In this document: piece by piece, positions 1-54,655 of the stretch
Layout: each line of letters opens with the position of its first letter
Numbering within the stretch: position 1 is the first letter of the stretch
Origin: Callorhinchus milii
Lineage: Eukaryota
DNA: 64,000 bases
NCBI RefSeq assembly: GCF_018977255.1
Contig: NW_024704742.1
Span: 72,046,001-72,110,000 of the forward strand
Direction of reading: 5' to 3'
Translations under genes and position numbers: made by a program
The notes under the pieces: generated by a model
Database searches by the model: none
What the model was told of the DNA's origin: nothing
What the model saw: the letters and a program-made list of their open reading frames with translations, nothing else

Positions 1-1897
1 GTGTAGATGACATATGTAGGTGTGTGTGCTGTGTGTAGGTGTGTGCTATGTGTAGATGTGTGTAGGTGCGCGCGACGTGTGTAGGTGCGAGCGACGTGTG
101 TAGGTGCGTGCGACGTGTGTAGGAGTAGGTGACGATGCCTGAGCTGCGGCACTGTGACACAGATTGTGTATTGTGGTGTGGTTGACAGTATCTATGTATA
201 GTTCAGTTCAGACTAACCTGCTATAGGACAGGTATGTTGGTATAGTTCACAGTGTCTCTGTATAGGTGACGGTTCCTTGGTACAGCTGTGTAATAGACAT
301 TACCTTGTCACTCTCTAGGTAATGTGACAGAATCTTGGCACACTTGATGGTATCTTGGTGCAGTTAGTGATGTTTTGTGTGGTTGGTAGTTGGTATAGCT
401 GATGGTTGGTGTAGTTGGTGATGTCTTGGTGCATTCAACAGTTTCTGCATATCATTGCTGCCGTATTTATTGACAATGCTTTGTTAAGTTGACGATGTCT
501 ATAATAATCTTTGCATTTAATAAAGTGTCTTTGAGTTGTTCTCCCAATGTGAAAAGCGCTATACAAATGTAATGTTGTTGTTGTCTCAAAGAACTTTACA
601 AGATTTACTGTAAAATGCAACTTTACAGTTAATGGTAATTACAGGTGGTTAATGGTGCCCTGGTTAATGGTATCCTGGTGGAGTTAGCGATTTCTTAGTA
701 TAGTTGATGCCATCTAGCTGGACAACAACAACAATATATAACAACAAATTGCATTTATATAGCGCCTTTTACACTGGGAGGAATGCTAAGATGCTGGACA
801 ATCAAGGATCAAGGGTTTGCATCCGAGCTGTGGGCTGGAGTCAAGAGGGGTGGAGGGCAAGTGGGTGTAGCATGGGAAGATGACAGAAGGCACAGTTAAA
901 CTTGAAGGTCTTGAGACGGGCCTTCAAGGAGGCAAGAGAGGGCGCAAGAGGGAGGAAATCTGTAATGGATTTCCACAGGGTGGGACCAGCGAGGCTGAAG
1001 CTGCAATAATGGATATCACTATCTGACAGTAGGTAACTGATCTCCAGGGCACTGCTTACAAAAGGCCAGCCAGCCTGGCTTATCAGTAGGACTTGCACAC
1101 CAGTTACTGCGGCAGAGACTCTTCTCACTTCGCTCCTGTTAACCCTGCAAGCACAAGCCCTAAAGTGCAGAGTGGTCCTAGCTGGATAAGAGTGGGAAAA
1201 GCTTGCCAGACAGTGATATCAATGGCAAGCTATGTGGTTTTAGCTGGTTAGACTCCACCAGTTACCACAAGGCACATTCTGGTGTCCCAAAGCCTTGGCT
1301 CTTGCCAACCTGTACTTTCTGGAATTAGATAAGCAGGATGCATCCCTCCAGGGAGAGAGTACACATTTCATTCCTATAATCTATCTCTGGAATTTCCATG
1401 TGTATGGATGCATGGAAATGTTAGTTTGGTTTGAATACTCTTAAACACGATGATGGGTTTCCGTGTGTGCCAGACACCCAGCTGATCAAAAGCAGAGACT
1501 GATCTCAGCCAGAGTGGAGACAGTTCTTTGTAAGACATTGATGCGCACAAATAATGTGTCAGCTCAGCTCAGCTGGTAGCACTCTCGTTTCTAAGTCAGA
1601 GGCCGTAGGATCAAGCCTCACGTTGGGACTTGTACTCACATAATCTCGGGGAATGGGGGTTTGTACTGCAGAGGTGCCATCCTTCAGATGAAATGTTAAA
1701 CTCAGATTCTGTCTGCCTGTTGAGGACATTGCCAGCACTATTGGTCATCCTCCCAATGTGAAAGGTACTCCATGAATGTAATTTGTTGTTGTTGACATTA
1801 AAGATCCCGCAGTGCTGTTGAAAAAGAAAAGGGAAATTCTCTCTCCGAGTGTTCTGGCCGACAATCCCCCAGTTAAAATCGGTCAGCCTCTCGCCCA

Positions 1898-2032
1898 TCT
1901 CTAGGAACTGGCTTGCTCTGGTTCATCCTGCATCTCCGTCCGTGTGTAAGTCTCGAAGGCAGTGCGCACACCGTAGCCAACCGAGAGTTCATGGAGGTTG
2001 CCAATCAGTGGCCTGACAAAGCAGTGAGCTGC
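1898..2032 (-). pseudogene. Inverted, diverged copy of the VAX2 C-terminal coding sequence (4277-4420) in the preceding intron
   Basis: Aligns to the reverse complement of 4277-4420 with ~20 mismatches plus 6-bp and 3-bp gaps by manual alignment; minus strand reads AAHCFVRPLIGNLHELSVGYGVRTAFETYTRTEMQDEPEQASS*. Confidence 0.93.
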
Positions 2033-2280
2033 TGTCTGTGCCTGTTCATGCGCACATTAAAGATCCTGAGGCACGATTCAAAAAGAGAAGGTAGTTTCTC
2101 TCTCCCGGTGTCCTGGCCAACAATCCCCCAAATAAAATTAGTAACTCACTCCATGGCTGTTTGTGGGACACTGCTGTCTCATTTTGTCCACAAAATATAC
2201 AGTCACTACACTTTACAGCCAATACTTGAAATGCTTTGAAACACCTCAATGACGTTATATGGTGCTCTATACCTGCTGGC

Positions 2281-3908
2281 CCACCACCTGCTGCCTTGAC
2301 GCCCTCCCCACCAACTTGCTAGTCACCCAGCTCCCCCTCCTCTGCCCACTACTGGCTGTCGTCATCAACTAGTCCCTCTGCTCCGGATCAGTCCCTGCCC
2401 CCCTCAAAACTGCTGTCATCAACACCCTCCTCAAGAAACCTTCCCTCAAACACCAGCCATTACTGCCCTATCTCTAATCTGTCTTTCCTCGCAAAAGTTC
2501 TAGAACGCGTTGTTGCCAATCAACTCCGCGCTCACCTCTCCTCCCACTCCCTCTTCAAACCCCTCCAGTCCGGTTTCCGCCCACAGTACAGAGACTGCGC
2601 TTGTGAAAGTCACAAACGACATCCTCTCTATTTGTGACCAGGGCTCCCTCTGCCTCCTTGCCCTCCTGGACCTCTCCGGGGCGTTCAACACAGTTGATCA
2701 CACCATCCTCCTCCACCGCCTTTCTTCCGTCATCCACCTCAGTGGGACCGCACTTGCCTGATTCGAGTCCTACCTCACAAACCGCCAGCAGTATATCTGT
2801 ACAAACGGCTTCTCCTCCCGCTCTCACCCGGTTACCTGCGGGGTACCCCAAGGATCCATTCTTGGCCCCCTCCTCTTTCTGATCTACATGCTCCCTCTTG
2901 GGGATGTCATCTGCAGACATGGGGTACATTTCCACATGTATGCGGACGACACCCAACTCTATTTTTCTGCCTCTCTTTGTGACCCCCAGTCCCTTGATGT
3001 TCTGTCAGCCTGCCTCTCAGACCTCAGGAGCTGGATGAGCACAAACTTCCTTCAGCTGAACGTTGATAATAATAATCCTTGCATTTGATAAGATGGAAGC
3101 CATACTCTTTGGCTCTCGTCAACGTCTAAAATCTCATGGCTCTCACCTACTCCACCTACCCGACCTCTCCCTAAAACTCTCTGAACTCGTATGCAACCTA
3201 GGCGTCAGGTTCGACCCCCAATTATCCTTCCTCCCCTATATCCAGTCCCTCACCAGCATCGCCTTCTTCCACCTCCGATGCATCGCCCGCCTCCGCCAAT
3301 ACGTCACTCCAAAAGCCACTGAAACCCTAGTCCATGCCTTTGTCACCTCTTGGCTGGACTATTCTAACGTCCTCCTCGCCGGTCTCCCCTCCACTACCAT
3401 CCATAAAATCCAGATCATTCAAAACTCTGCCGCTCACATTCTCACCCGCACCAATCTCCGCTCTCCGATTACCCCAGTCCTTGCCAGACTGCACTGGCTG
3501 CCTGTCCCAGAGAGGATCGACTTCAAGATCCTCACCCTTGTACTCAAATCCCTCCACTCCTCTGCACCCCCCTACCTCTCTGACCTCTCTCCTCAAAACA
3601 GTACCCATTGTTTTCGTTCCTCCGGGTCTGGCCTCCTCCTCGACCCCCGAGTCCTCCGCTCCGCCCTCGGCGGCCGTGCTTTCAGCCACTGTGCCCCGAG
3701 GCTTTGGAATTCCCATCCTCACTCCCTTCAACTCGCCCCCTCTCTTCCTATTTTCAGATCTCTGCTGAAGACCTTTCTTTTCGACCGCGCCTTTGGTCAC
3801 CTTCCTCCCCCTCCCCCTGGCTCGGCCCCGGGATCCGTTGCAGTGAAGCGCTCTGAGACGCCGTCAGGGGTGGAGGGCGCCATATAAATCCAAGTTGTTG
3901 TTGTTGTT
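2281..3908 (+). mobile_element. 5'-truncated L2 (subfamily A) ending ~45 bp upstream of the VAX2 acceptor
   Basis: HMYADDTQLY, LHWLPVPERIDFK, (TTG)n tail; closely similar to 53080-54655. Confidence 0.92.
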
Positions 3909-3952
3909 TAATGCAAGAATTATTATCACAGTTTTATTAATTTCTTCCCCAG

Positions 3953-4417
3953 GTTAAAGTTTGGTTCCAGAACAGACGGACGAAGCAGAAGAAGGACCAG
4001 AGTAAAGACTGTGAGCAGGGCTCGCCCGGCTCCTCCGAGTCTGTGGCCACGTGTAACATCCTGCGTTTGCTGGAGCAGGGCCGTCTGCTGGCCCCCCCAG
4101 CCCCCAGCCTCCTGCCCCTGGCTCCTAACGCCCTGGGCTCCGCACAGGGCAACGGATCGAGCCTGGTCAGCTCCACCACCCCCTCACCCAGGCTGAGCAG
4201 CACCCCACCTGGACAGCACCCGTTCAGCCTGCCTGCACCCACTCTGGGCTGTCCATCCCCCGGCCCCCACCTGCCGGCAGCTCTCTGCTTTGCTGGGCCA
4301 GTGATGGGCAACCCCCATGAACTCTCGGCCGGCTACAGTGTGGGAATGTCTGCCTTCGAGCCTTACACACGGACGGAGAGGCAGGACGAGGCAGTGGTGG
4401 AGCGAGCCAGTTCCTAG
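3953..4417 (+). CDS. VAX2: Terminal coding exon of a ventral anterior homeobox gene (most likely VAX2); upstream exons lie outside the window
   Basis: Acceptor tttcttccccAG (3951-3952), then homeodomain helix 3 VKVWFQNRRTKQKKDQSKD, VAX motif ATCNILRLLEQGRLL and C-terminal SAFEPY, stop TAG at 4415-4417. VAX2 preferred over VAX1 from QSKD/ATCNIL similarity and linkage to ANKRD53. Confidence 0.9.
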   Translation, partial: VKVWFQNRRTKQKKDQSKDCEQGSPGSSESVATCNILRLLEQGRLLAPPAPSLLPLAPNALGSAQGNGSSLVSSTTPSPRLSSTPPGQHPFSLPAPTLGCPSPGPHLPAALCFAGPVMGNPHELSAGYSVGMSAFEPYTRTERQDEAVVERASS

Positions 4418-5654
4418 AGACAGGAGTGATGCTGAACTGATGTCAAGGACAAAGCTTCCCACGGAGACATTTTTGCTCACTCCCCTCCCCCACCGCAGTC
4501 GGGGAGCTCAGGGAGTGGAGGGGGACAGCGTTGACCTCCTCCCATTAGATGGAGGGAACCAGATTTCATGTTGCACACCCTCCACTGACACTGTCTCACC
4601 ACAGGGGGCGGCGTGGCTCTCTCACACCCACCACAGGGGTTTGTGCCGACAGCTGTAGCAGCCATGTTGGGAATGGCGTGGGTTTGCCTGATGGGTGGCA
4701 TCTCTGTTATTTTTCTGGTGACGCTTTCCTCTCCCAACACCACTCCCCTGCACTCTTACCCACCACCCCGCCCTCCCGCCCCGCTCCACCCCCTGGTTTC
4801 TGGTGCTAATACACTCACAATATTGTAAATGACTCAGTCACCCATCCACCAATCCCCCTGTGTCTGTCTCACACCATCTCTTGCCTCCTCATATCAAATG
4901 CCACCAGCGTGTTCTCTCTCCCCATCCCCTGCCCCTCCCCTGCTTCCTGTTGCAGCTGTACATTTCCTGCAAACTTTCAATGTCTTAAAAGCGCATTAAC
5001 CTCACAAGAAAGTGTTTGGGACGTTTTCTGTTGGGGTGGTGGGGCGCGGTTACGTTCACTGCCAGGCAACTCAGTGACACGAGGTGGGGTAGAGGGGGGG
5101 GGTCTGCAGCCCCTTTAATTGACTGGCTGGCTCCTGTGATGAGCTTTGACAGTGCCCACCACCCCTATCGACCTATATGCCCTGACACTTGTGCTGGCTA
5201 CTCACTGGGATGTAAAGGGTTAAAAACGACATGAAGTATTTTCAGTGACAAACTATAGAGAAGCAAATGTATCAGCTTCAGCCCAGCGCCAGTCACTTTC
5301 CTCCCCCCGCCCCCCACCCCAGGTCTACCCCCAGCCTTCCCCCAGCCACACACACATACACCGCACACACGCACAAACACACACAGAATGGTGGCAGATT
5401 CATCTACAGTTTATTAAATTATAAATTATTCAAAGAGATTTGATGTATTATTTTTGGTCCAGCAAATAGTTCTCCATCTGAGGGAGAGGGGAACAGAAGG
5501 GTGTAGCAGAGGGAATAGAGGGGTGTAGAAGAGAGTTAAATAGAGAGGTATAAGAGACAGGAATAGAAGGGTTTAGGAGAGTGGAATTTTTTTTGGTCAC
5601 CCGGGTGTCTAACACATGTGGAAACCCATCCAAATCAAACAGAATTCCAAGGAT

Positions 5655-6400
5655 TATGGCACAGTAGTAGCACTCTTGCCTCTGAGTCAGCAATTTGTGG
5701 GTTCAAACCCCATGACTTGGAATCATGTAGTCTAAGCTGACACTCCACTGTATTTCTGGGGGTTGTTGCATTGTATCGTGGAGTCCTGTAGCTCAGTGGT
5801 TAGAGCATTCGCTTTGCAAGCGAGAGACCTGAGTTCAATTCCAGGCAGAGGGCGAAACCTTGGGCAAGTTTCCTTACTCCACACGCCTCATAATAATCCC
5901 TACAAAAACAATAATAAATTGGTCATTTTCAATCTACGACTGTTTGTGGGACATTGCTGCGCGCAATTGGCTGCTGCGTTCGCCCACAAATATACAGTCT
6001 ATTCACTTTACAGTGTGTTCTGTGAAGCGCTTTGGGACGTCCTTCCGACATGAAAAGCGCTATATCAAATGCAAGGATTATTATTATTATTGGCGGAGGT
6101 GCCGTCCTTTGGATGAGATGTTAAACCGAGGTCCCGTCTGCCTGTTCAGGTGGACGTTAAAGATCCCATGGCACTATTCAAAAAAAGAATGGTGTTTCTA
6201 TCTCCCAGTGAACTGCCCAACAATCCCCCAAATACAATTGGTCACTCATTCCATGATTATTGTGGGACACTGCTGTGCACAACTGGCTGCCGCATTTTGT
6301 CCACAGAATAGAGTCACGATACTTTACAGTCTATTCTGTGAAGCGCTTTTAGACGTCGAGAAGACGTGAAGTGCTATATCAAATGCAAGGATTATTATTA
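5655..6400 (+). mobile_element. Deu-domain SINE (DeuSINE superfamily), interrupted; other copies near 1560-2270+, 12185-, 13445-, 18170+, 25100-, 28920+, 33530-, 44295+, 45110+, 47220+, 50540+
   Basis: Core GGAGGTGCCGTCCTTTGGATGAGATGTTAAACCGAGGTCCCGTCTG...TTAAAGATCCCATGGCAC resembles the Deu domain. Confidence 0.8.
5780..6090 (+). mobile_element. tRNA(Ala)-derived SINE, short young variant, nested in a Deu-domain SINE
   Basis: Box A TAGCTCAGTGG, TGC anticodon-like loop, box B GAGTTCAATTCC, L2-type tail, (TTA)n. Confidence 0.88.
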
Positions 6401-8011
6401 TAGGAGAGGGGAATAGAGCGTTGTGGGAGAGGGGAATAGGAGGGGTGTAAGAAAGGGCAATAGAGGGGTCCAAGAAAGGGCAATAGAAGAGCGCAGGTGA
6501 GGGAAATAGAGGGGTGTAGGAGAGGGGAATCGAGCGGCTTAGTAGAGGGGAATAGAGAAGTATAAGAGAGGAATAGATCTTATCACATGATTGAAGTGCA
6601 CCAATATGACGTGTGGTGTCTGCTACCTGGCTATTTCTACACTAACCACGTGCATTCCAATAAGATAGTGCCTCAGAGGGCTTTGCAGTGACTGAGCAGG
6701 GGAGGGGGTGGTAACCATAGGAGCAGTGAGGTTTTGAATTGGATTTAAAGAGGGGAAGATGGAGGGGTGGAGGGAGTTCCAGAGGTTAGAGTTGTAGTGT
6801 CTGAAGACTTGGCCAGTGATGGTGGTGGAGAGAGCACACACCGCAGAGTGAATGGAAAGGGTGAGCATAGGAGTGGGGTAGGAAATGAGGGACATGGGGA
6901 TAGGTTGAGGAGTGAATGAAGGGATTTCTAGATTGATTCCTTCATATCTCACCCGAAGGATGGTGTCTCCAACAGTGGAGCGCTCCCCCAACTGGAGCAT
7001 CAGCCTGGACTGTGAGCTCAATGTCCCTGATGTGGGGGCTCAAACCAAGGACCTCAAGCCGAGTGGCTGAGATGGTAATGGTTCCCATTGTGTTTCTGCT
7101 CTGCCATCAACTTCCACCATTGGCTCACTCAAGCCAGGGATTGACCGGCTGAGACCTTATGCCTCTGACTGGCTCAGAGTGAGTCTGATGGACTGCATCC
7201 AATCACAGATCGGAGAAACAAGGTTTGTCAGGGTCAGGTCCCAGTAGTGACCTTGTTACTCTCTGACCCAATTTTGTGCACGACTTTGGCAGAGGTTGAG
7301 GGAGAGGAGTGAGGAGGAATTGGGGGTGGGGGAGGCGGATTAAGTGAGGGGAGGGGAGGAGGAGGGGCGTGAGGGGGAGGCAAGGAGGAGGCGTGCAAGG
7401 AGAAAGGGCGAGTGGGAGAGGGGAATGAGGAAGAGAGGGGGCACGGAGGAGTGGGAGTGAGGCGGAGGTGGGGCAAGGTGGGGTGAGGAGGAGGGGAGCG
7501 AGGGCGGCGAGGAGGAGGGGGGGACAGGGTGTGCAAGGGGAGCGAGGAAGATGATTTTAGGGCCTGAAAATTAAACTTGATTATCCTTTCTGTAGAGAAA
7601 TGCCAGAAGTAATGAGAAGCTGCCCCTCGCTGCAGGGTTGATACCTACCTGGCTGTGTGGGGTGTGAGCCTGGAGGTGGCTGGTATATAGCCACCCTCTG
7701 TCCCCCGCATCTTCACCATCTCAGCTACAATCCCAGCTGGTTAGTCAAACATAACCTTGTGAATCTGTGCTTCATTGCCTGTTCCCGCCCCACCCATCTG
7801 CCACCCGCTCCTCACCACACTGAGAGCTTCCAGCACAAACTCCCCCAGCTCCTTCCACATGAGCACAGTTTCCTGCAGGAGAATCCCTGACTGACATCCC
7901 CATTCTGTTTTTATTTTAGATTTCCAGCATCTGCAGTATTTTGCCTTTCACTTTACAATATGTTTTCTGAACCACTTTGAGATATCTCAATGACGTGATA
8001 AGGCACTAATT

Positions 8012-51039: not shown

Positions 51040-54000
51040 ACAAGTCGGAAGCAGAGGTAGGAGAGCGGGGGGCAGAGCTGAGGCCTAGCTGCGTATAAAA
51101 GCACAGCCAGGTGAGGAGCCACTCAGTCGGGAGTGGAGGTGGGAGAGCGCGGGGCGGGAGGTAGTGACGGGGTGGCGCGATTCACAAAGTGACGTCGGTG
51201 TGACGTCACAGTTAAAATTTTTTTTTTTAAATAAACAGTAACAACAACAATGTCCTGGCCCCTGGCACAGCCATCCCGGCCATGACCTGGGAGGCTGAGC
51301 CTACGGGCTGATGTCGTCCCACTTGATCACTCGCTCCCGGTCTCTGCATGCGCATTTTGGCTGCCACCCCGACCCGAGCCTCCCCCTCCACTCCAAATGT
51401 CTCTCCTCCCGCCCCCTTCTATGTCTCTCCTCCCACCTGCCCCTATGCCTCTCCTCCCACTCCCCTCTATCCGCTACTCCCCCTCTGTCCTTCTCTCCCA
51501 CCGCCCTCCCCGCCTTCTCTCTCTCCTCGACCCCATCACCACTTCCCTCTGCTCCAGCCTGGGCATCCTACGCCGGGCCCATCATGGCTCCAGGCACTTG
51601 CTGTCCCGGAGCAGCAACCCCAAGTGTCCAATCATTCACTCCCTCCACACAAACCACCTTAAGGCAAACCCAACTTCCCCCTCCCTCATAAGTACCCTTC
51701 CCAACTCTCCACTCACACCACTCTCCACAACCATCTCTCCTGTACACCCCAAAATCCTCTCCGCATCACTCTCTCCTCCCTCCCCTCCCTCCAGCAAACC
51801 CACCCGCATTTCCCTCCAAAACGTCCGTTCCCTCTCAAATAAAGCCCTCACCATCCACGACCTCATTCTGGACGAGCACCTTGACATTCTTTGGCTCATC
51901 GAAACCTGGCTCTCCCTCAATGACCCCATCCCCTCCTCTCCAGGCTACACCTTCCACCACACCACCACACCCCCCGTCCAAACCAAAGTGGCGGTGGGGT
52001 GGCCTTCATTTCCAAAGCCTCCCTTGGTCTTACCCTCTACTCCTCTGGCTGCTTCCCCTCCTTCGAGCACCTCACCCTCTTCCACCCCTCTCTCCCATTG
52101 AAAATCCTCCTTGTCTACCGCCCCCCCAAGCCCCTCGGCTCCTTCCACACAAATGTCTCTACTCTCCTCTCTTTCCTGTCCCTCTGCTCCGAGCACCTAA
52201 ACTCCCCTTGCACTACTTCTGCTGACTTCACTGCTCTCCTCCCCTCCCTAAACCTCACCCTTCATATAAATTCACCCACCCACAACCGTGGTCATGCCCT
52301 TGACCTCGTTATCACCCATGGCCTTGACATTTCCGACCTCAGCATAGTGGACAAGGCCATCTCGGACCACTTCCTCATCTTCTTCTCCTCCCACATCCCT
52401 CTCTCCTCCACCAAGCTCTCAACCATCCTCTACCACCCTTGGAAAAGGCTAGCCCCTGAGACCCTCACAAAGGCCCTCGCATCATCAAACATCCTATCCC
52501 TTTGGCCTTCCACCCGCAGAGATCCTGAAGCAGCCGTCCAACTGCTCCATGATCACCTCTCCTCCACCTTCAAATCCCTCGTCCCCCTGAAATCCAGGAC
52601 CATCTCCAAACTCACTCAATCCCCCTGGTACAACAACCATCTCCGCCGCCTAAAATCCCATACCCGGCTGCTCGAGTGCAGATGGCAGAAAACTGGCCTG
52701 ATAGTTATGGCTCGAGCATCACAGTTACCGCCGTTCCTTGACACGCGCAAAAACGGCCTTCTACTCCAACATCATCATGGAGCCTAAACACAACCCTAAA
52801 ATCCTTTTTTCCACCACCCACTACCTCCTCCGTTCCCCCCCTCAGGCCTCCTCAATCTTCGTATCAAATGCCAAGTGCGAGGAGGTCGTGGACTTTTCAT
52901 CTAAAATTCACAACATCTGCCAGGCAGCCTCATCCACCTGCCCCTTGTCACCAACCATCAACCCCTCTCTGTCCCCCTCACCCTCCCCATCATTTGCTCC
53001 TACCACCACCCCCATCCTCATTCCTTCCTCCCCATTTCTCCCTCCTCCCTCTCACCCACCATCACCTCCATGAAACCCAGCACCTGCTGCCTCGACTCCC
53101 TCCCCACCAACTTGCTGGTCACCCAGCTCCCCCTCCTCTGCCCACTACTGGCTGACGTCATCAACCAGTCCCTCTCCTCTGGATCAGTCCCTGCCCTCCT
53201 CAAAACTGCTGTCATCACCCCCCTCCTCAAGAAACCTTTCCTCAAATCCCAGCCATTACCAATGCCCCATTTCTAATCTGCCCTTCCTCGCAAAAGTTCT
53301 AGAACGTGTTGTTGTCAATCAACTCCGCGCTCACCTCTCCTCCCACTCCCTCTTCGAGGCCCTCCAGTCCGGTTTCCGCCCACAGTACAGAGACTGGACT
53401 TGTGAAAGTCACAAACAACATCCTCTCTATCTGTGACCAGGGCTCCCTCTGCCTCCTCCTCCTGGATCTCTCTGCGGCGTTCGAACGCCTTTCCTCTGTC
53501 ATCCACCTCAGTGGGACCACACTCGCCTAGTTCAAGTACTACCTCACAAATCGCCAGCAGTACATCTGCACAAACAGCTTCTCCTCCCGCTCTCTCCCGG
53601 TTACCTGCGGGGTACCCCAAGGATCCATCCTTGGCCCCTCCTCTTTCTGATCTACATGCTCCCTCTTGGGGATGTCATCCGCAGACATGGGGTACACTTC
53701 CACATGTACGGGGACAACACCCATCTCTATTTTTCCACCTCTCTTTGCGACCCCCAATCCCCCGATGTTCTGTCAGCCTGCCTCTCAGACCTCAGGCGCT
53801 GGATGAGCGCAATTTTCCTTCAGCTGAACGTTGACAAGATGGAAGCCACACTCTTTGGCTCTCGTCAACGTCTAAAATCTCATGGCTCTCATCTCCTCCA
53901 CCTACCCGACCTCCCCCTAAAACTCTCCGAACCCGTACGTAACCTAGGGTCAGGTTCGACCCCTAATTATCCTTCCTCCCCCACATCCGCTCCCTCTCCA

Positions 54001-54655
54001 ACACCGCTTTCTTCCACCTCCGACGCATGGCCCATCTCCACCAATACCTCACTCCAAAAGCCGCTGAAACCCTGGTCCATGCCTTTGTCACTTCTCGGCT
54101 GGCCTATTCTAACGTCCTCCTCCCTGGCCTCCCATCCACTACCATCCATAAAATCCAGATCATTCAAAACTCTGCCGCCCGTATTCTCACCCGCACCAAA
54201 CTCCGCTCCCCGATTACCCCAGTCCTTGCCAGACTGCACTGGCTGCCTGTCCCAGAGAGGAACGACTTCAAGATCCTCACCCTTGTATTCAGATCCCTCC
54301 ATTCCTCTGCACCCCCCTACCTCTCTGATCTCCTCTCTCCACAAAACAGTATCCGCTGCCTTCGTTCCTCCGGGTCTGGCCTCCTCCTCGCCCTCCGAGT
54401 CCTCCGCTCTGCCCTCGGCGGCCGTGCCTTCAGCCACTATGCCCCGAGGCTCTGGAATTCCTTCCTCACTCTCTTTGTCTCGTTCCCTCCCTTCCCATTT
54501 TCAGGTCTCGGCTGAAGACCTTTCTTTTCGACTGCGCCTTTGGTCACCTTCCTCCCCCTCCCCCTGGCTCTGCCCCGGGATCCGTTACTGTAAAGTGCTC
54601 CGAGACGCCGTCAGGAGTGGAGGGCGCTATAAAAATCCAAGCTGTTGTTGTTGTT
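51040..54655 (+). mobile_element. Apparently full-length L2-clade LINE (subfamily A), single degenerate EN+RT ORF
   Basis: GC-rich 5' region, ATG 51250, AP-endonuclease motifs (LQNVRSL, ETWL, SDH), RT motifs (LDLSAAF, HMYGD from YADD), L2 C-terminus (LHWLPV), (TTG)n tail; frameshifted. Confidence 0.9.

Follow-up and report, generated by a model that had tools for sequence, protein, structure and literature searches.

Intron 2 of the VAX2 gene of Callorhinchus milii holds an inverted copy of the end of the gene's own coding sequence, which we regard as the probable product (probability about 0.7) of a one-off templated insertion at the DNA level, either by template switching or as filler sequence. 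This reading builds on sequence comparisons within a window of 64,000 nucleotides (positions 72,046,001 to 72,110,000 of contig NW_024704742.1, assembly GCF_018977255.1) and across the assembly. Positions given below are those of the window, and the features are collected in Table 1.

The copied sequence belongs to exon 3 of VAX2. This exon matched 551 proteins at E<=0.001, the best-scoring of which were named VAX2 and showed about 60% identity; no VAX2 protein closer than about 63% to this exon was found in the protein search. Exon 2, which carries a GT donor, is located at L035:5450-5637, and the intron between the two exons measures 8,315 nt and holds the inverted copy on the transcribed strand. 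An earlier, sequence-only reading of this DNA had presumed that the copy is part of the VAX2 primary transcript, and its location in intron 2 of that transcription unit, on the gene's own strand, bears this out. Words of exon 3 and its 3'UTR (3953-4953) were next to absent from same-species runs guessed as RNA.

In a gapped local alignment, positions 1883-2032 correspond to the reverse complement of 4277-4435, with 127 of the 150 aligned columns identical (84.7%) and the copy shorter than its source by two gaps of 3 and 6 nt. A repeat search recovered the same relationship as three collinear inverted segments (1967-2032/4277-4342, 1918-1962/4350-4394 and 1883-1918/4400-4435), and copy and source are now spaced by 2,244 nt. 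Read on the minus strand, the copy runs AAHCF...EQASS* and continues into 15-18 nt derived from the 3'UTR. When the whole 991-Mb assembly was searched with the 150-nt query, only the copy itself and the exon were returned (both of the two candidates scored; E 2.7e-32), so the inverted copy represents neither chance similarity nor a repeat family, and descent from an interspersed repeat family was rejected on the grounds of these two places. The sequence-only reading had described an inverted copy of the VAX2 C-terminus, roughly 85% identical, about 2.2 kb upstream, open to the same TAG and lying between two overlapping SINE pieces, all of which is upheld here; as to its limits (1898-2032 and 4277-4420), the inner ends stand, whereas the outer ends are displaced by 15 nt, to 1883 and 4435. 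That the arrangement could reflect an assembly artefact or a fortuitous resemblance carries practically no weight with us: besides the E value obtained against the whole genome, the copy was covered at single-copy depth in four of four DNA-like runs from one study, one of these runs possibly being the source of the assembly itself. In two other samples, contigs that differ by one letter each extend across the left junction (run X1, 1775-2002) and across both junctions (run X3, 1775-2105).

Table 1. Features of the VAX2 intron 2-exon 3 region, in window coordinates.
Feature	Position	Strand	Basis
Left SINE piece: head-like part and body (313 nt in full) as far as about position 156	1552..1885	+	family alignment
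Inverted copy of the VAX2 coding end	1883..2032	-	alignment, repeat search; unique in genome
Intron strand of the 22-bp helix, the longest without mismatches, predicted to pair with 4399-4420 including the stop codon	1898..1919	+	predicted fold
Right SINE piece: starts at about body position 44 and stops just short of the tail	2033..2264	+	family alignment
LINE fragment, 5'-truncated, with reverse-transcriptase-like reading and (TTG)n tail, nested in the right SINE tail	2265..3899	+	genome matches
Remainder of the right SINE tail, AATGCAAGAATTATTAT, some 30 nt upstream of the exon 3 acceptor	3900..3922	+	read against family tails
VAX2 exon 3 coding part (VKVWFQNRR...ERASS*), acceptor AG 3951-3952	3953..4417	+	protein matches, splice site
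Source segment: last 46 codons of VAX2 exon 3, TAG (4415-4417) and first 18 nt of the 3'UTR	4277..4435	+	alignment, protein matches

The copy is embedded in SINE sequence on both sides. The first ~110 nt of the right SINE piece repeat the segment with which the left piece ends (an overlap of 110-115 aligned columns), and, taken together, the two flanks amount to a single SINE 5' part plus a single SINE 3' part. The left piece additionally carries a nested retroposon tail fragment of ~63 nt (about 1731-1793), flanked by GACATT repeats at 1725-1730 and 1794-1799. ARAGORN detected no tRNA-like gene in 1400-2300; by eye only, 1552-1640 looks tRNA-like. The LINE fragment in the right SINE tail has at least 41 matches besides its own place, with identities of 82-90% (the best 40 of 13,649 candidates were scored). 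Since its relatives longer than 300 nt, of which there are 39 among the matches listed, are 86-90% identical and the best full-length relatives of the SINEs 77-82%, the LINE appears younger than the SINEs, and without it the gap from copy to exon would amount to ~0.6 kb.

The overlap of the SINE pieces, the left one ending at about body position 156 and the right one restarting at about 44, together with the lack of poly(A) or poly(T) at either junction of the copy, points to a templated insertion at the DNA level. The copy is also the reverse complement of nearby sequence from the same locus, as a template-switch insertion would be. We infer that the event began in intron 2 with the repair of a break or with a template switch during replication, that a polymerase then used the opposite strand of exon 3, in those days only about 0.6 kb off, as template for about 159 nt, and that it rejoined the intron inside SINE sequence. 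This would have left an inverted exon fragment flanked by two overlapping SINE pieces, which subsequently would have decayed neutrally and been pushed to 2.2 kb from its source by the later LINE insertion. Possible junction microhomology amounts to 3 nt (TCA) and 1 nt (C), which is short and uncertain after ~15% decay. In one study, template switches during replication are described as copying a neighbouring stretch in reverse complement, with RNA hairpins as a possible product; the known short-range events described there are, however, far shorter than 150 nt, which counts against this origin (PMC8794818). A processed VAX2 retrocopy was rejected as a candidate, because the copied sequence comes from within exon 3, stops 18 nt beyond the stop codon and has no A or T tract at its ends.

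The history of the two SINE pieces bears on a further explanation. The distance between left and right pieces (24/110) fits both one duplicated SINE and two SINEs, and no private substitutions common to the two pieces were found. They differ in a concordant direction at five sites linked to an unselected subfamily marker (three with p about 0.001 or below, two with p 0.02-0.03), which favours two separate SINEs over one duplicated SINE, at least two of these five sites being CpG sites and the comparison sets having been picked for resembling the left or the right piece. Different states at these sites would be expected from two SINE RNAs, as in a chimeric retroposition. There, a LINE reverse transcriptase working on one SINE RNA would move onto an antisense VAX2 template and from there onto another SINE RNA, so that the 5' part of a SINE, the antisense exon piece and the 3' part of a SINE would be inserted together. 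Such a scheme would also agree with the left piece keeping the SINE 5' part and the right piece the SINE 3' end, and with the similar age of all three pieces. Nevertheless, it requires antisense VAX2 RNA (or DNA) as template, since a switch to the sense pre-mRNA would yield the opposite orientation, and the CpG sites speak against reading the marker-linked differences in its favour. A search for a target-site duplication around the SINE-copy-SINE unit gave nothing convincing: its best candidate, 1520-1533 against 3927-3940, is a weak match within another SINE-like fragment. We consider chimeric retroposition improbable and retain the DNA-level templated insertion as the preferred reading.

After its insertion the copy appears to have decayed like neutral DNA, as far as one genome can serve as the basis. 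The 23 substitutions that separate copy and exon are distributed 6/6/6 over codon positions 1/2/3, with the other five among 18 UTR bases. The coding difference of 18/132 aligned bases, mostly on the copy's side, is similar to the distance between either SINE flank and the majority of its family (16/110 and 13/110) and about half of the left-right SINE distance; its agreement with the neighbouring SINEs is what fits neutral decay. The 14 aligned residue differences were judged against seven other VAX2 proteins, a state being taken as shared when at least one of them had it: the exon state is shared at nine, the copy state at three and neither at two, and accordingly nine of the residue changes appear to lie in the copy and three in the exon. 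Changes particular to the exon are not matched in the copy, and an identical run of 22 nt or more would be expected in 31% of random placements (P = 0.31 for the 22-nt run observed). As for the indels, both represent sequence lost from the copy, in one case within a GTGGTG repeat. The frame-preserving indels of 6 and 3 bp reported by the sequence-only reading do have these sizes, but coding constraint as their cause was rejected, given that the deletions are on the copy's side, that one falls in the repeat and that substitutions are even over codon positions. The alternative named in that same reading, a neutral templated insertion, sits well with the even codon positions and with changes and deletions being on the side of the copy. 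Nothing indicates that the copy is under selection.

Because both arms reside in one pre-mRNA, an imperfect duplex of ~130 bp is likely to form as a by-product. Co-folding predicts 131 pairs between the two arms, over nearly their full length, and -235.8 kcal/mol, about 30 SD lower than shuffled arms (-110 +/- 4 kcal/mol), close to the imperfect duplex of ~135 bp that the sequence-only reading had envisaged; the pairing between the arms persists in the predicted MFE fold of 1600-4700 (3.1 kb). The predicted duplex covers conserved codons and the stop codon, and as it is predicted to be very stable, a functional consequence is possible. ADAR prefers a UAG context and A:C mismatches. The A of the stop codon (4416) stands in a U-A-G context, opposite U and inside the longest predicted helix, while A4337 lies opposite C and, as G, would encode Gly instead of Ser, the residue of six of seven other VAX2 proteins. 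The genome contains loci with the A_deamin domain of ADAR-type deaminases (PF02137; 20 exon-level matches over the cut-off on five contigs, which may be ADAR, ADAT or ADAD). Like other lineage-specific inverted repeats, the duplex may be edited incidentally by ADAR.

These properties could also be taken to mean that the copy is a selected editing-site complementary sequence (ECS) or a regulatory long-range pre-mRNA duplex, in which pairing would direct ADAR recoding (for example Ser to Gly at 4337 or stop to Trp at 4416) or modulate splicing or 3'-end processing. The copy is indeed an exon-complementary segment within one primary transcript, the predicted fold is extensive, the two adenosines are suitably placed, A_deamin loci exist in the genome, and intronic ECSs constitute an established class (PMC4053846). 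Against selection, the differences are even over codon positions and of neutral-like magnitude, the copy has suffered two deletions, the exon's own changes have no counterpart in it, and its identical runs are no longer than chance gives. The proposed outcomes offer little either: UAG read as UGG would add the extension W-R-Q-E only, four residues before a TGA, and the predicted duplex begins 325 nt downstream of the 3' splice site and so covers no splice signal. Altogether, we judge a selected duplex to be improbable. A somewhat different proposition, which we put forward as doubtful, is that of a newborn ECS: one template switch at the DNA level would have made an ADAR substrate, edited in VAX2-expressing cells, out of the stop codon and the conserved C-terminal codons of a developmental homeobox gene. 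This would include recoding at A4337, by which Ser would return to the ancestral Gly, and partial UAG-to-UGG readthrough.

Several known systems resemble the VAX2 arrangement in part. Templated insertions of the FoSTeS/MMBIR type and short-range template switches similarly copy nearby sequence in reverse complement, with little or no junction homology, and produce an inverted repeat able to fold as RNA (PMC8794818; see also PMC2621351, PMC7954356, PMC8421209). Evolutionary template-switch studies deal with events of a few to tens of nucleotides, whereas 150-159 nt were copied here from ~0.6 kb, which is longer and more distant; conversely, MMBIR copy-number events are far larger than the VAX2 insertion, and the VAX2 event is a reconstruction. 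Like the copy, the intronic ECSs or editing inducer elements of ADAR targets are complementary to a coding exon of their own pre-mRNA (PMC4053846; see also PMC3479170, PMC5654063), and the arms form a long imperfect duplex, which in VAX2 is predicted. In contrast, known functional ECSs are defined by observed editing and by both arms being strongly conserved, which for 45 sites means more than 70 of 81 bases (PMC4053846), while the VAX2 copy is known from DNA and looks decaying. Lineage-specific inverted repeats of Alu, B1 or LINE elements, which give rise to dsRNA in pre-mRNAs, resemble the VAX2 pair in being young, imperfect, roughly 85% complementary, a few kb apart and within one transcript; most editing sites come from such repeats and are probably neutral, and a coding editing site in SLC9A6 has arisen from an inverted repeat pair (PMC4053846). 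Unlike in these pairs, the VAX2 arms are the end of a unique conserved coding exon and its private copy, neither of them a repeat. Plant MIRNA genes that arose by inverted duplication of their targets likewise owe a gene-complementary hairpin to an inverted partial copy (PMC3237417; bioRxiv 10.1101/682591), but they are separate loci that give rise to small RNAs, whereas VAX2 gained one new arm that would pair in cis with its parent exon; no small-RNA pathway is implied for it.

In a thin literature search, no printed precedent was found for an exon-derived ECS created by local inverted duplication. Should the copy be only a repair scar, it would provide a clean and datable vertebrate case in which coding sequence was captured by an inverted templated insertion as long as 150 nt. 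Should the duplex be edited in vivo, it would show that an ECS can arise in one mutational step and would open the question of how site-selective editing substrates originate to testing, in a gene whose developmental read-out is clear; a true newborn ECS would be a natural example of how site-selective editing of coding exons originates. The copy also keeps older residues of the exon: it has Gly and Thr at places now occupied by Ser and Met in the exon.

The end of the VAX2 coding sequence is present a second time, inverted, upstream of the exon that carries it. A repeat search joined window positions 1883-2032 to 4277-4435 by three collinear inverted segments, and when 1883-2032 was reverse-complemented and aligned locally with 4277-4435, allowing gaps, 127 of the 150 columns were identical (84.7%); two gaps were opened, one of 3 nt and one of 6 nt. 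The sequence-only reading had recognized this inverted pairing; the copy is real and slightly larger than it had noted, and the limits of both arms are corrected accordingly. The source takes in the final 46 codons of exon 3, its stop codon TAG (4415-4417) and 18 nt of 3'UTR, and the minus-strand frame of the copy is, as had been claimed, open as far as the same TAG. In the whole 991-Mb assembly the 150-nt query matched only the copy itself and the exon (E 2.7e-32 for the latter), which excludes chance similarity as well as origin from a repeat family. An assembly error can also be rejected, because the copy is found at single-copy depth in 4/4 DNA-like public sequencing runs (four samples of one study, one of which could be the source of the assembly itself) and because contigs cross its junctions: the listed contigs of one run (X1) bridge the left junction and those of another (X3) bridge both, with one other letter each.

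At E<=0.001 the translation of the exon had 551 protein matches, the best-scoring of which are named VAX2 (~60% identity), and three of these VAX2 proteins were used to place the exons by tblastn (see table). The copy lies within intron 2, which is 8,315 nt long, on the transcribed strand; provided that transcription is canonical, both arms would therefore be part of one primary transcript, as the sequence-only reading presumed. At the exon 2/intron 2 boundary (L035:5610-5680, ~8.3 kb upstream of exon 3), the exon end with its GT donor (..GAGACACAG/GTACACACAG) recurs ~31 nt downstream (..CAGACACAGGTACACACACAG). This small tandem duplication gives a second donor-like site, the use of which would shift the frame.

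Features of the VAX2 region surrounding the inverted copy (window positions, except for the upstream genomic loci L033 and L035; exons placed by tblastn; SINE body positions are those of the 313-nt body defined on the full copy at window 6089-6401)
Feature	Position	Remarks
VAX2 exon 1	L033:4940-5203	
VAX2 exon 2	L035:5450-5637	GT donor at 5638
VAX2 exon 3	starts at 3953	AG just before
Left SINE piece	~1552-1885	carries SINE 5' part; ends at ~body position 156
Retroposon tail fragment, ~63 nt	nested in left piece	GACATT repeats on both flanks
Right SINE piece	from 2033	begins at ~body position 44, on towards tail
5'-truncated LINE fragment	2265-3899	interrupts tail of right SINE piece
Remaining tail of right SINE piece	3900-3922	~30 nt before exon 3 acceptor

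Pairing between the arms is predicted to run near end to end (131 pairs, -235.8 kcal/mol), as compared with predicted energies of -110 +/- 4 kcal/mol for 100 shuffles of one arm; the single arms folded alone reach -41 and -54 kcal/mol. The predicted duplex includes perfect helices of 22, 18, 14 and 11 bp, and 131/131 pairs are retained in the minimum-energy fold of 1600-4700, so that in prediction the suspected potential for a strong duplex is borne out. Since the predicted duplex starts 325 nt inside exon 3, it covers no splice signal.

The exon arm contains 33 adenosines. ADAR prefers UAG and A:C mismatches; stop-codon A4416 lies in a U-A-G context and is predicted to pair with U within the 22-bp helix, and A4337 has a C opposite in the predicted duplex. 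Loci encoding adenosine-deaminase domains occur on five contigs of the genome. Incidental editing of the predicted duplex is plausible by analogy, because inverted repeat pairs account for most known editing, which is mostly regarded as neutral (PMC4053846). Effects on the protein would be modest: a stop read as Trp would add W-R-Q-E ahead of a TGA, and 4337 read as G would restore the ancestral Gly.

Two pieces of an abundant SINE enclose the copy; an initial search gave 3,752 candidates for the right one and 763 for the left, of which 40 each were scored. Given where the left piece stops and the right one begins, ~110 nt of the SINE is present on both sides. Those relatives of the LINE fragment that exceed 300 nt show 86-90% identity with it, as against 77-82% for full-length relatives of the right SINE (40 of 3,752 candidates scored), so the LINE probably inserted after the SINE, and the distance between copy and source was probably ~0.6 kb at first instead of today's 2.2 kb. 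Further members of these families occur nearby. A partial and a full copy of the SINE stand head to tail at window 5929-6401, with a 316-nt period, and a second LINE copy at 53076-54646 (G000:C1:72099076-72100646, on the window's own contig) is 88% identical to the fragment at 2280-3899, which itself carries a short reverse complement of the SINE tail motif (ATAATAATCCTTGCATTTGATA) at 3060-3091. Numerous left-type matches to the SINE are clustered at 70.4-71.9 Mb of the same contig. Identical aligned SINE rows at L042/L043 (G000:C1:70800902 and 70779308, 21.6 kb apart) and at L020/L021 (20732 and 14044 of contig C259, 6.7 kb apart) suggest recent segmental or tandem duplications.

Because it derives from the interior of exon 3, stops 18 nt past the stop codon and bears an A or T tract at neither end, the copy is not a processed retrocopy. 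Its plus strand reads antisense VAX2, so the polymerase must have used as template either exon 3 close by, on its opposite DNA strand, or an antisense RNA. Insert and SINE share at most TCA at the left junction and C at the right. The insert was probably made by template switching during replication or by synthesis of filler DNA at a break, as its anatomy matches the products of these processes (PMC8794818; PMC2621351, PMC7954356, PMC8421209). There may have been a single SINE, in which the return switch landed upstream of the departure point and left a ~110-nt duplication; this accounts for the 5' part in the left piece and the 3' end in the right, and is consistent with a left-right distance of 24/110, roughly double the divergence of the copy itself. 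Alternatively, two distinct SINE copies may have been brought together over a deletion, the exon copy serving as filler. Left and right pieces differ concordantly at five sites linked to a subfamily marker further downstream, which played no part in choosing the comparison copies (p ~0.001 or below at three, 0.02-0.03 at two), although at least two of the five are CpG. Moreover, the set majorities differ at 8/110 columns, with the left-type state in the left piece at 7/8 and the right-type state in the right piece at 6/8, but resemblance to one of the two pieces was the basis on which each set was selected. A chimera formed by template jumping of a reverse transcriptase is less likely than either, as it requires a template in antisense and the search for a target-site duplication gave no credible candidate. 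Another interspersed repeat, also present at several other loci, flanks the exon 3 region in inverted orientation (window 1406-1491 and 5591-5630); its symmetry axis differs from that of the exon copy, which marks it as a separate event.

At the sequence level the copy shows no sign of constraint. Of its 23 substitutions (12 transitions; 6 in CpG context), each of the three codon positions has 6, and the other 5 are in the 18 UTR bases. The 3- and 6-nt indels do preserve frame, as had been pointed out, but both are deletions in the copy, one inside a GTGGTG repeat, and they carry no evidential weight. The longest stretch of unbroken identity spans the stop codon and measures 22 nt; when an equal number of differences is placed at random, a stretch at least this long is expected in 31% of cases. 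Copy and exon differ at 18/132 aligned coding bases, mostly by changes on the copy's side; this is of the same order as the distance of the SINE pieces from their family majorities (16/110 and 13/110). When the 14 residue differences were polarized by alignment with seven other VAX2 proteins, the exon state was found in at least one of the seven at 9, the copy state at 3 (Gly in GYG, 6/7; Thr in GT, 6/7; Leu, 1/7) and neither at 2. Judged by this alignment, the copy serves as a small fossil: the exon's Gly to Ser change at 4337 came after the event, and the Thr to Met change probably also postdates it. The functional reading of the duplex is unsupported, and the sequence pattern favours a neutral templated insertion, the alternative that the sequence-only reading had itself named. 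The copy belongs to known kinds, templated inverted insertions and lineage-specific inverted repeats in pre-mRNA, but one of its arms, the conserved end of a coding exon, is unusual among them.

Downstream of the VAX2 stop, the SINE pair is bracketed by arrays of a purine-rich unit of ~23 nt (..GAGAGGGGAATAGAG..), at window 5481-5589 and 6401-6578, and beyond them follows a GA/GGA-rich low-complexity tract at 7304-7538.
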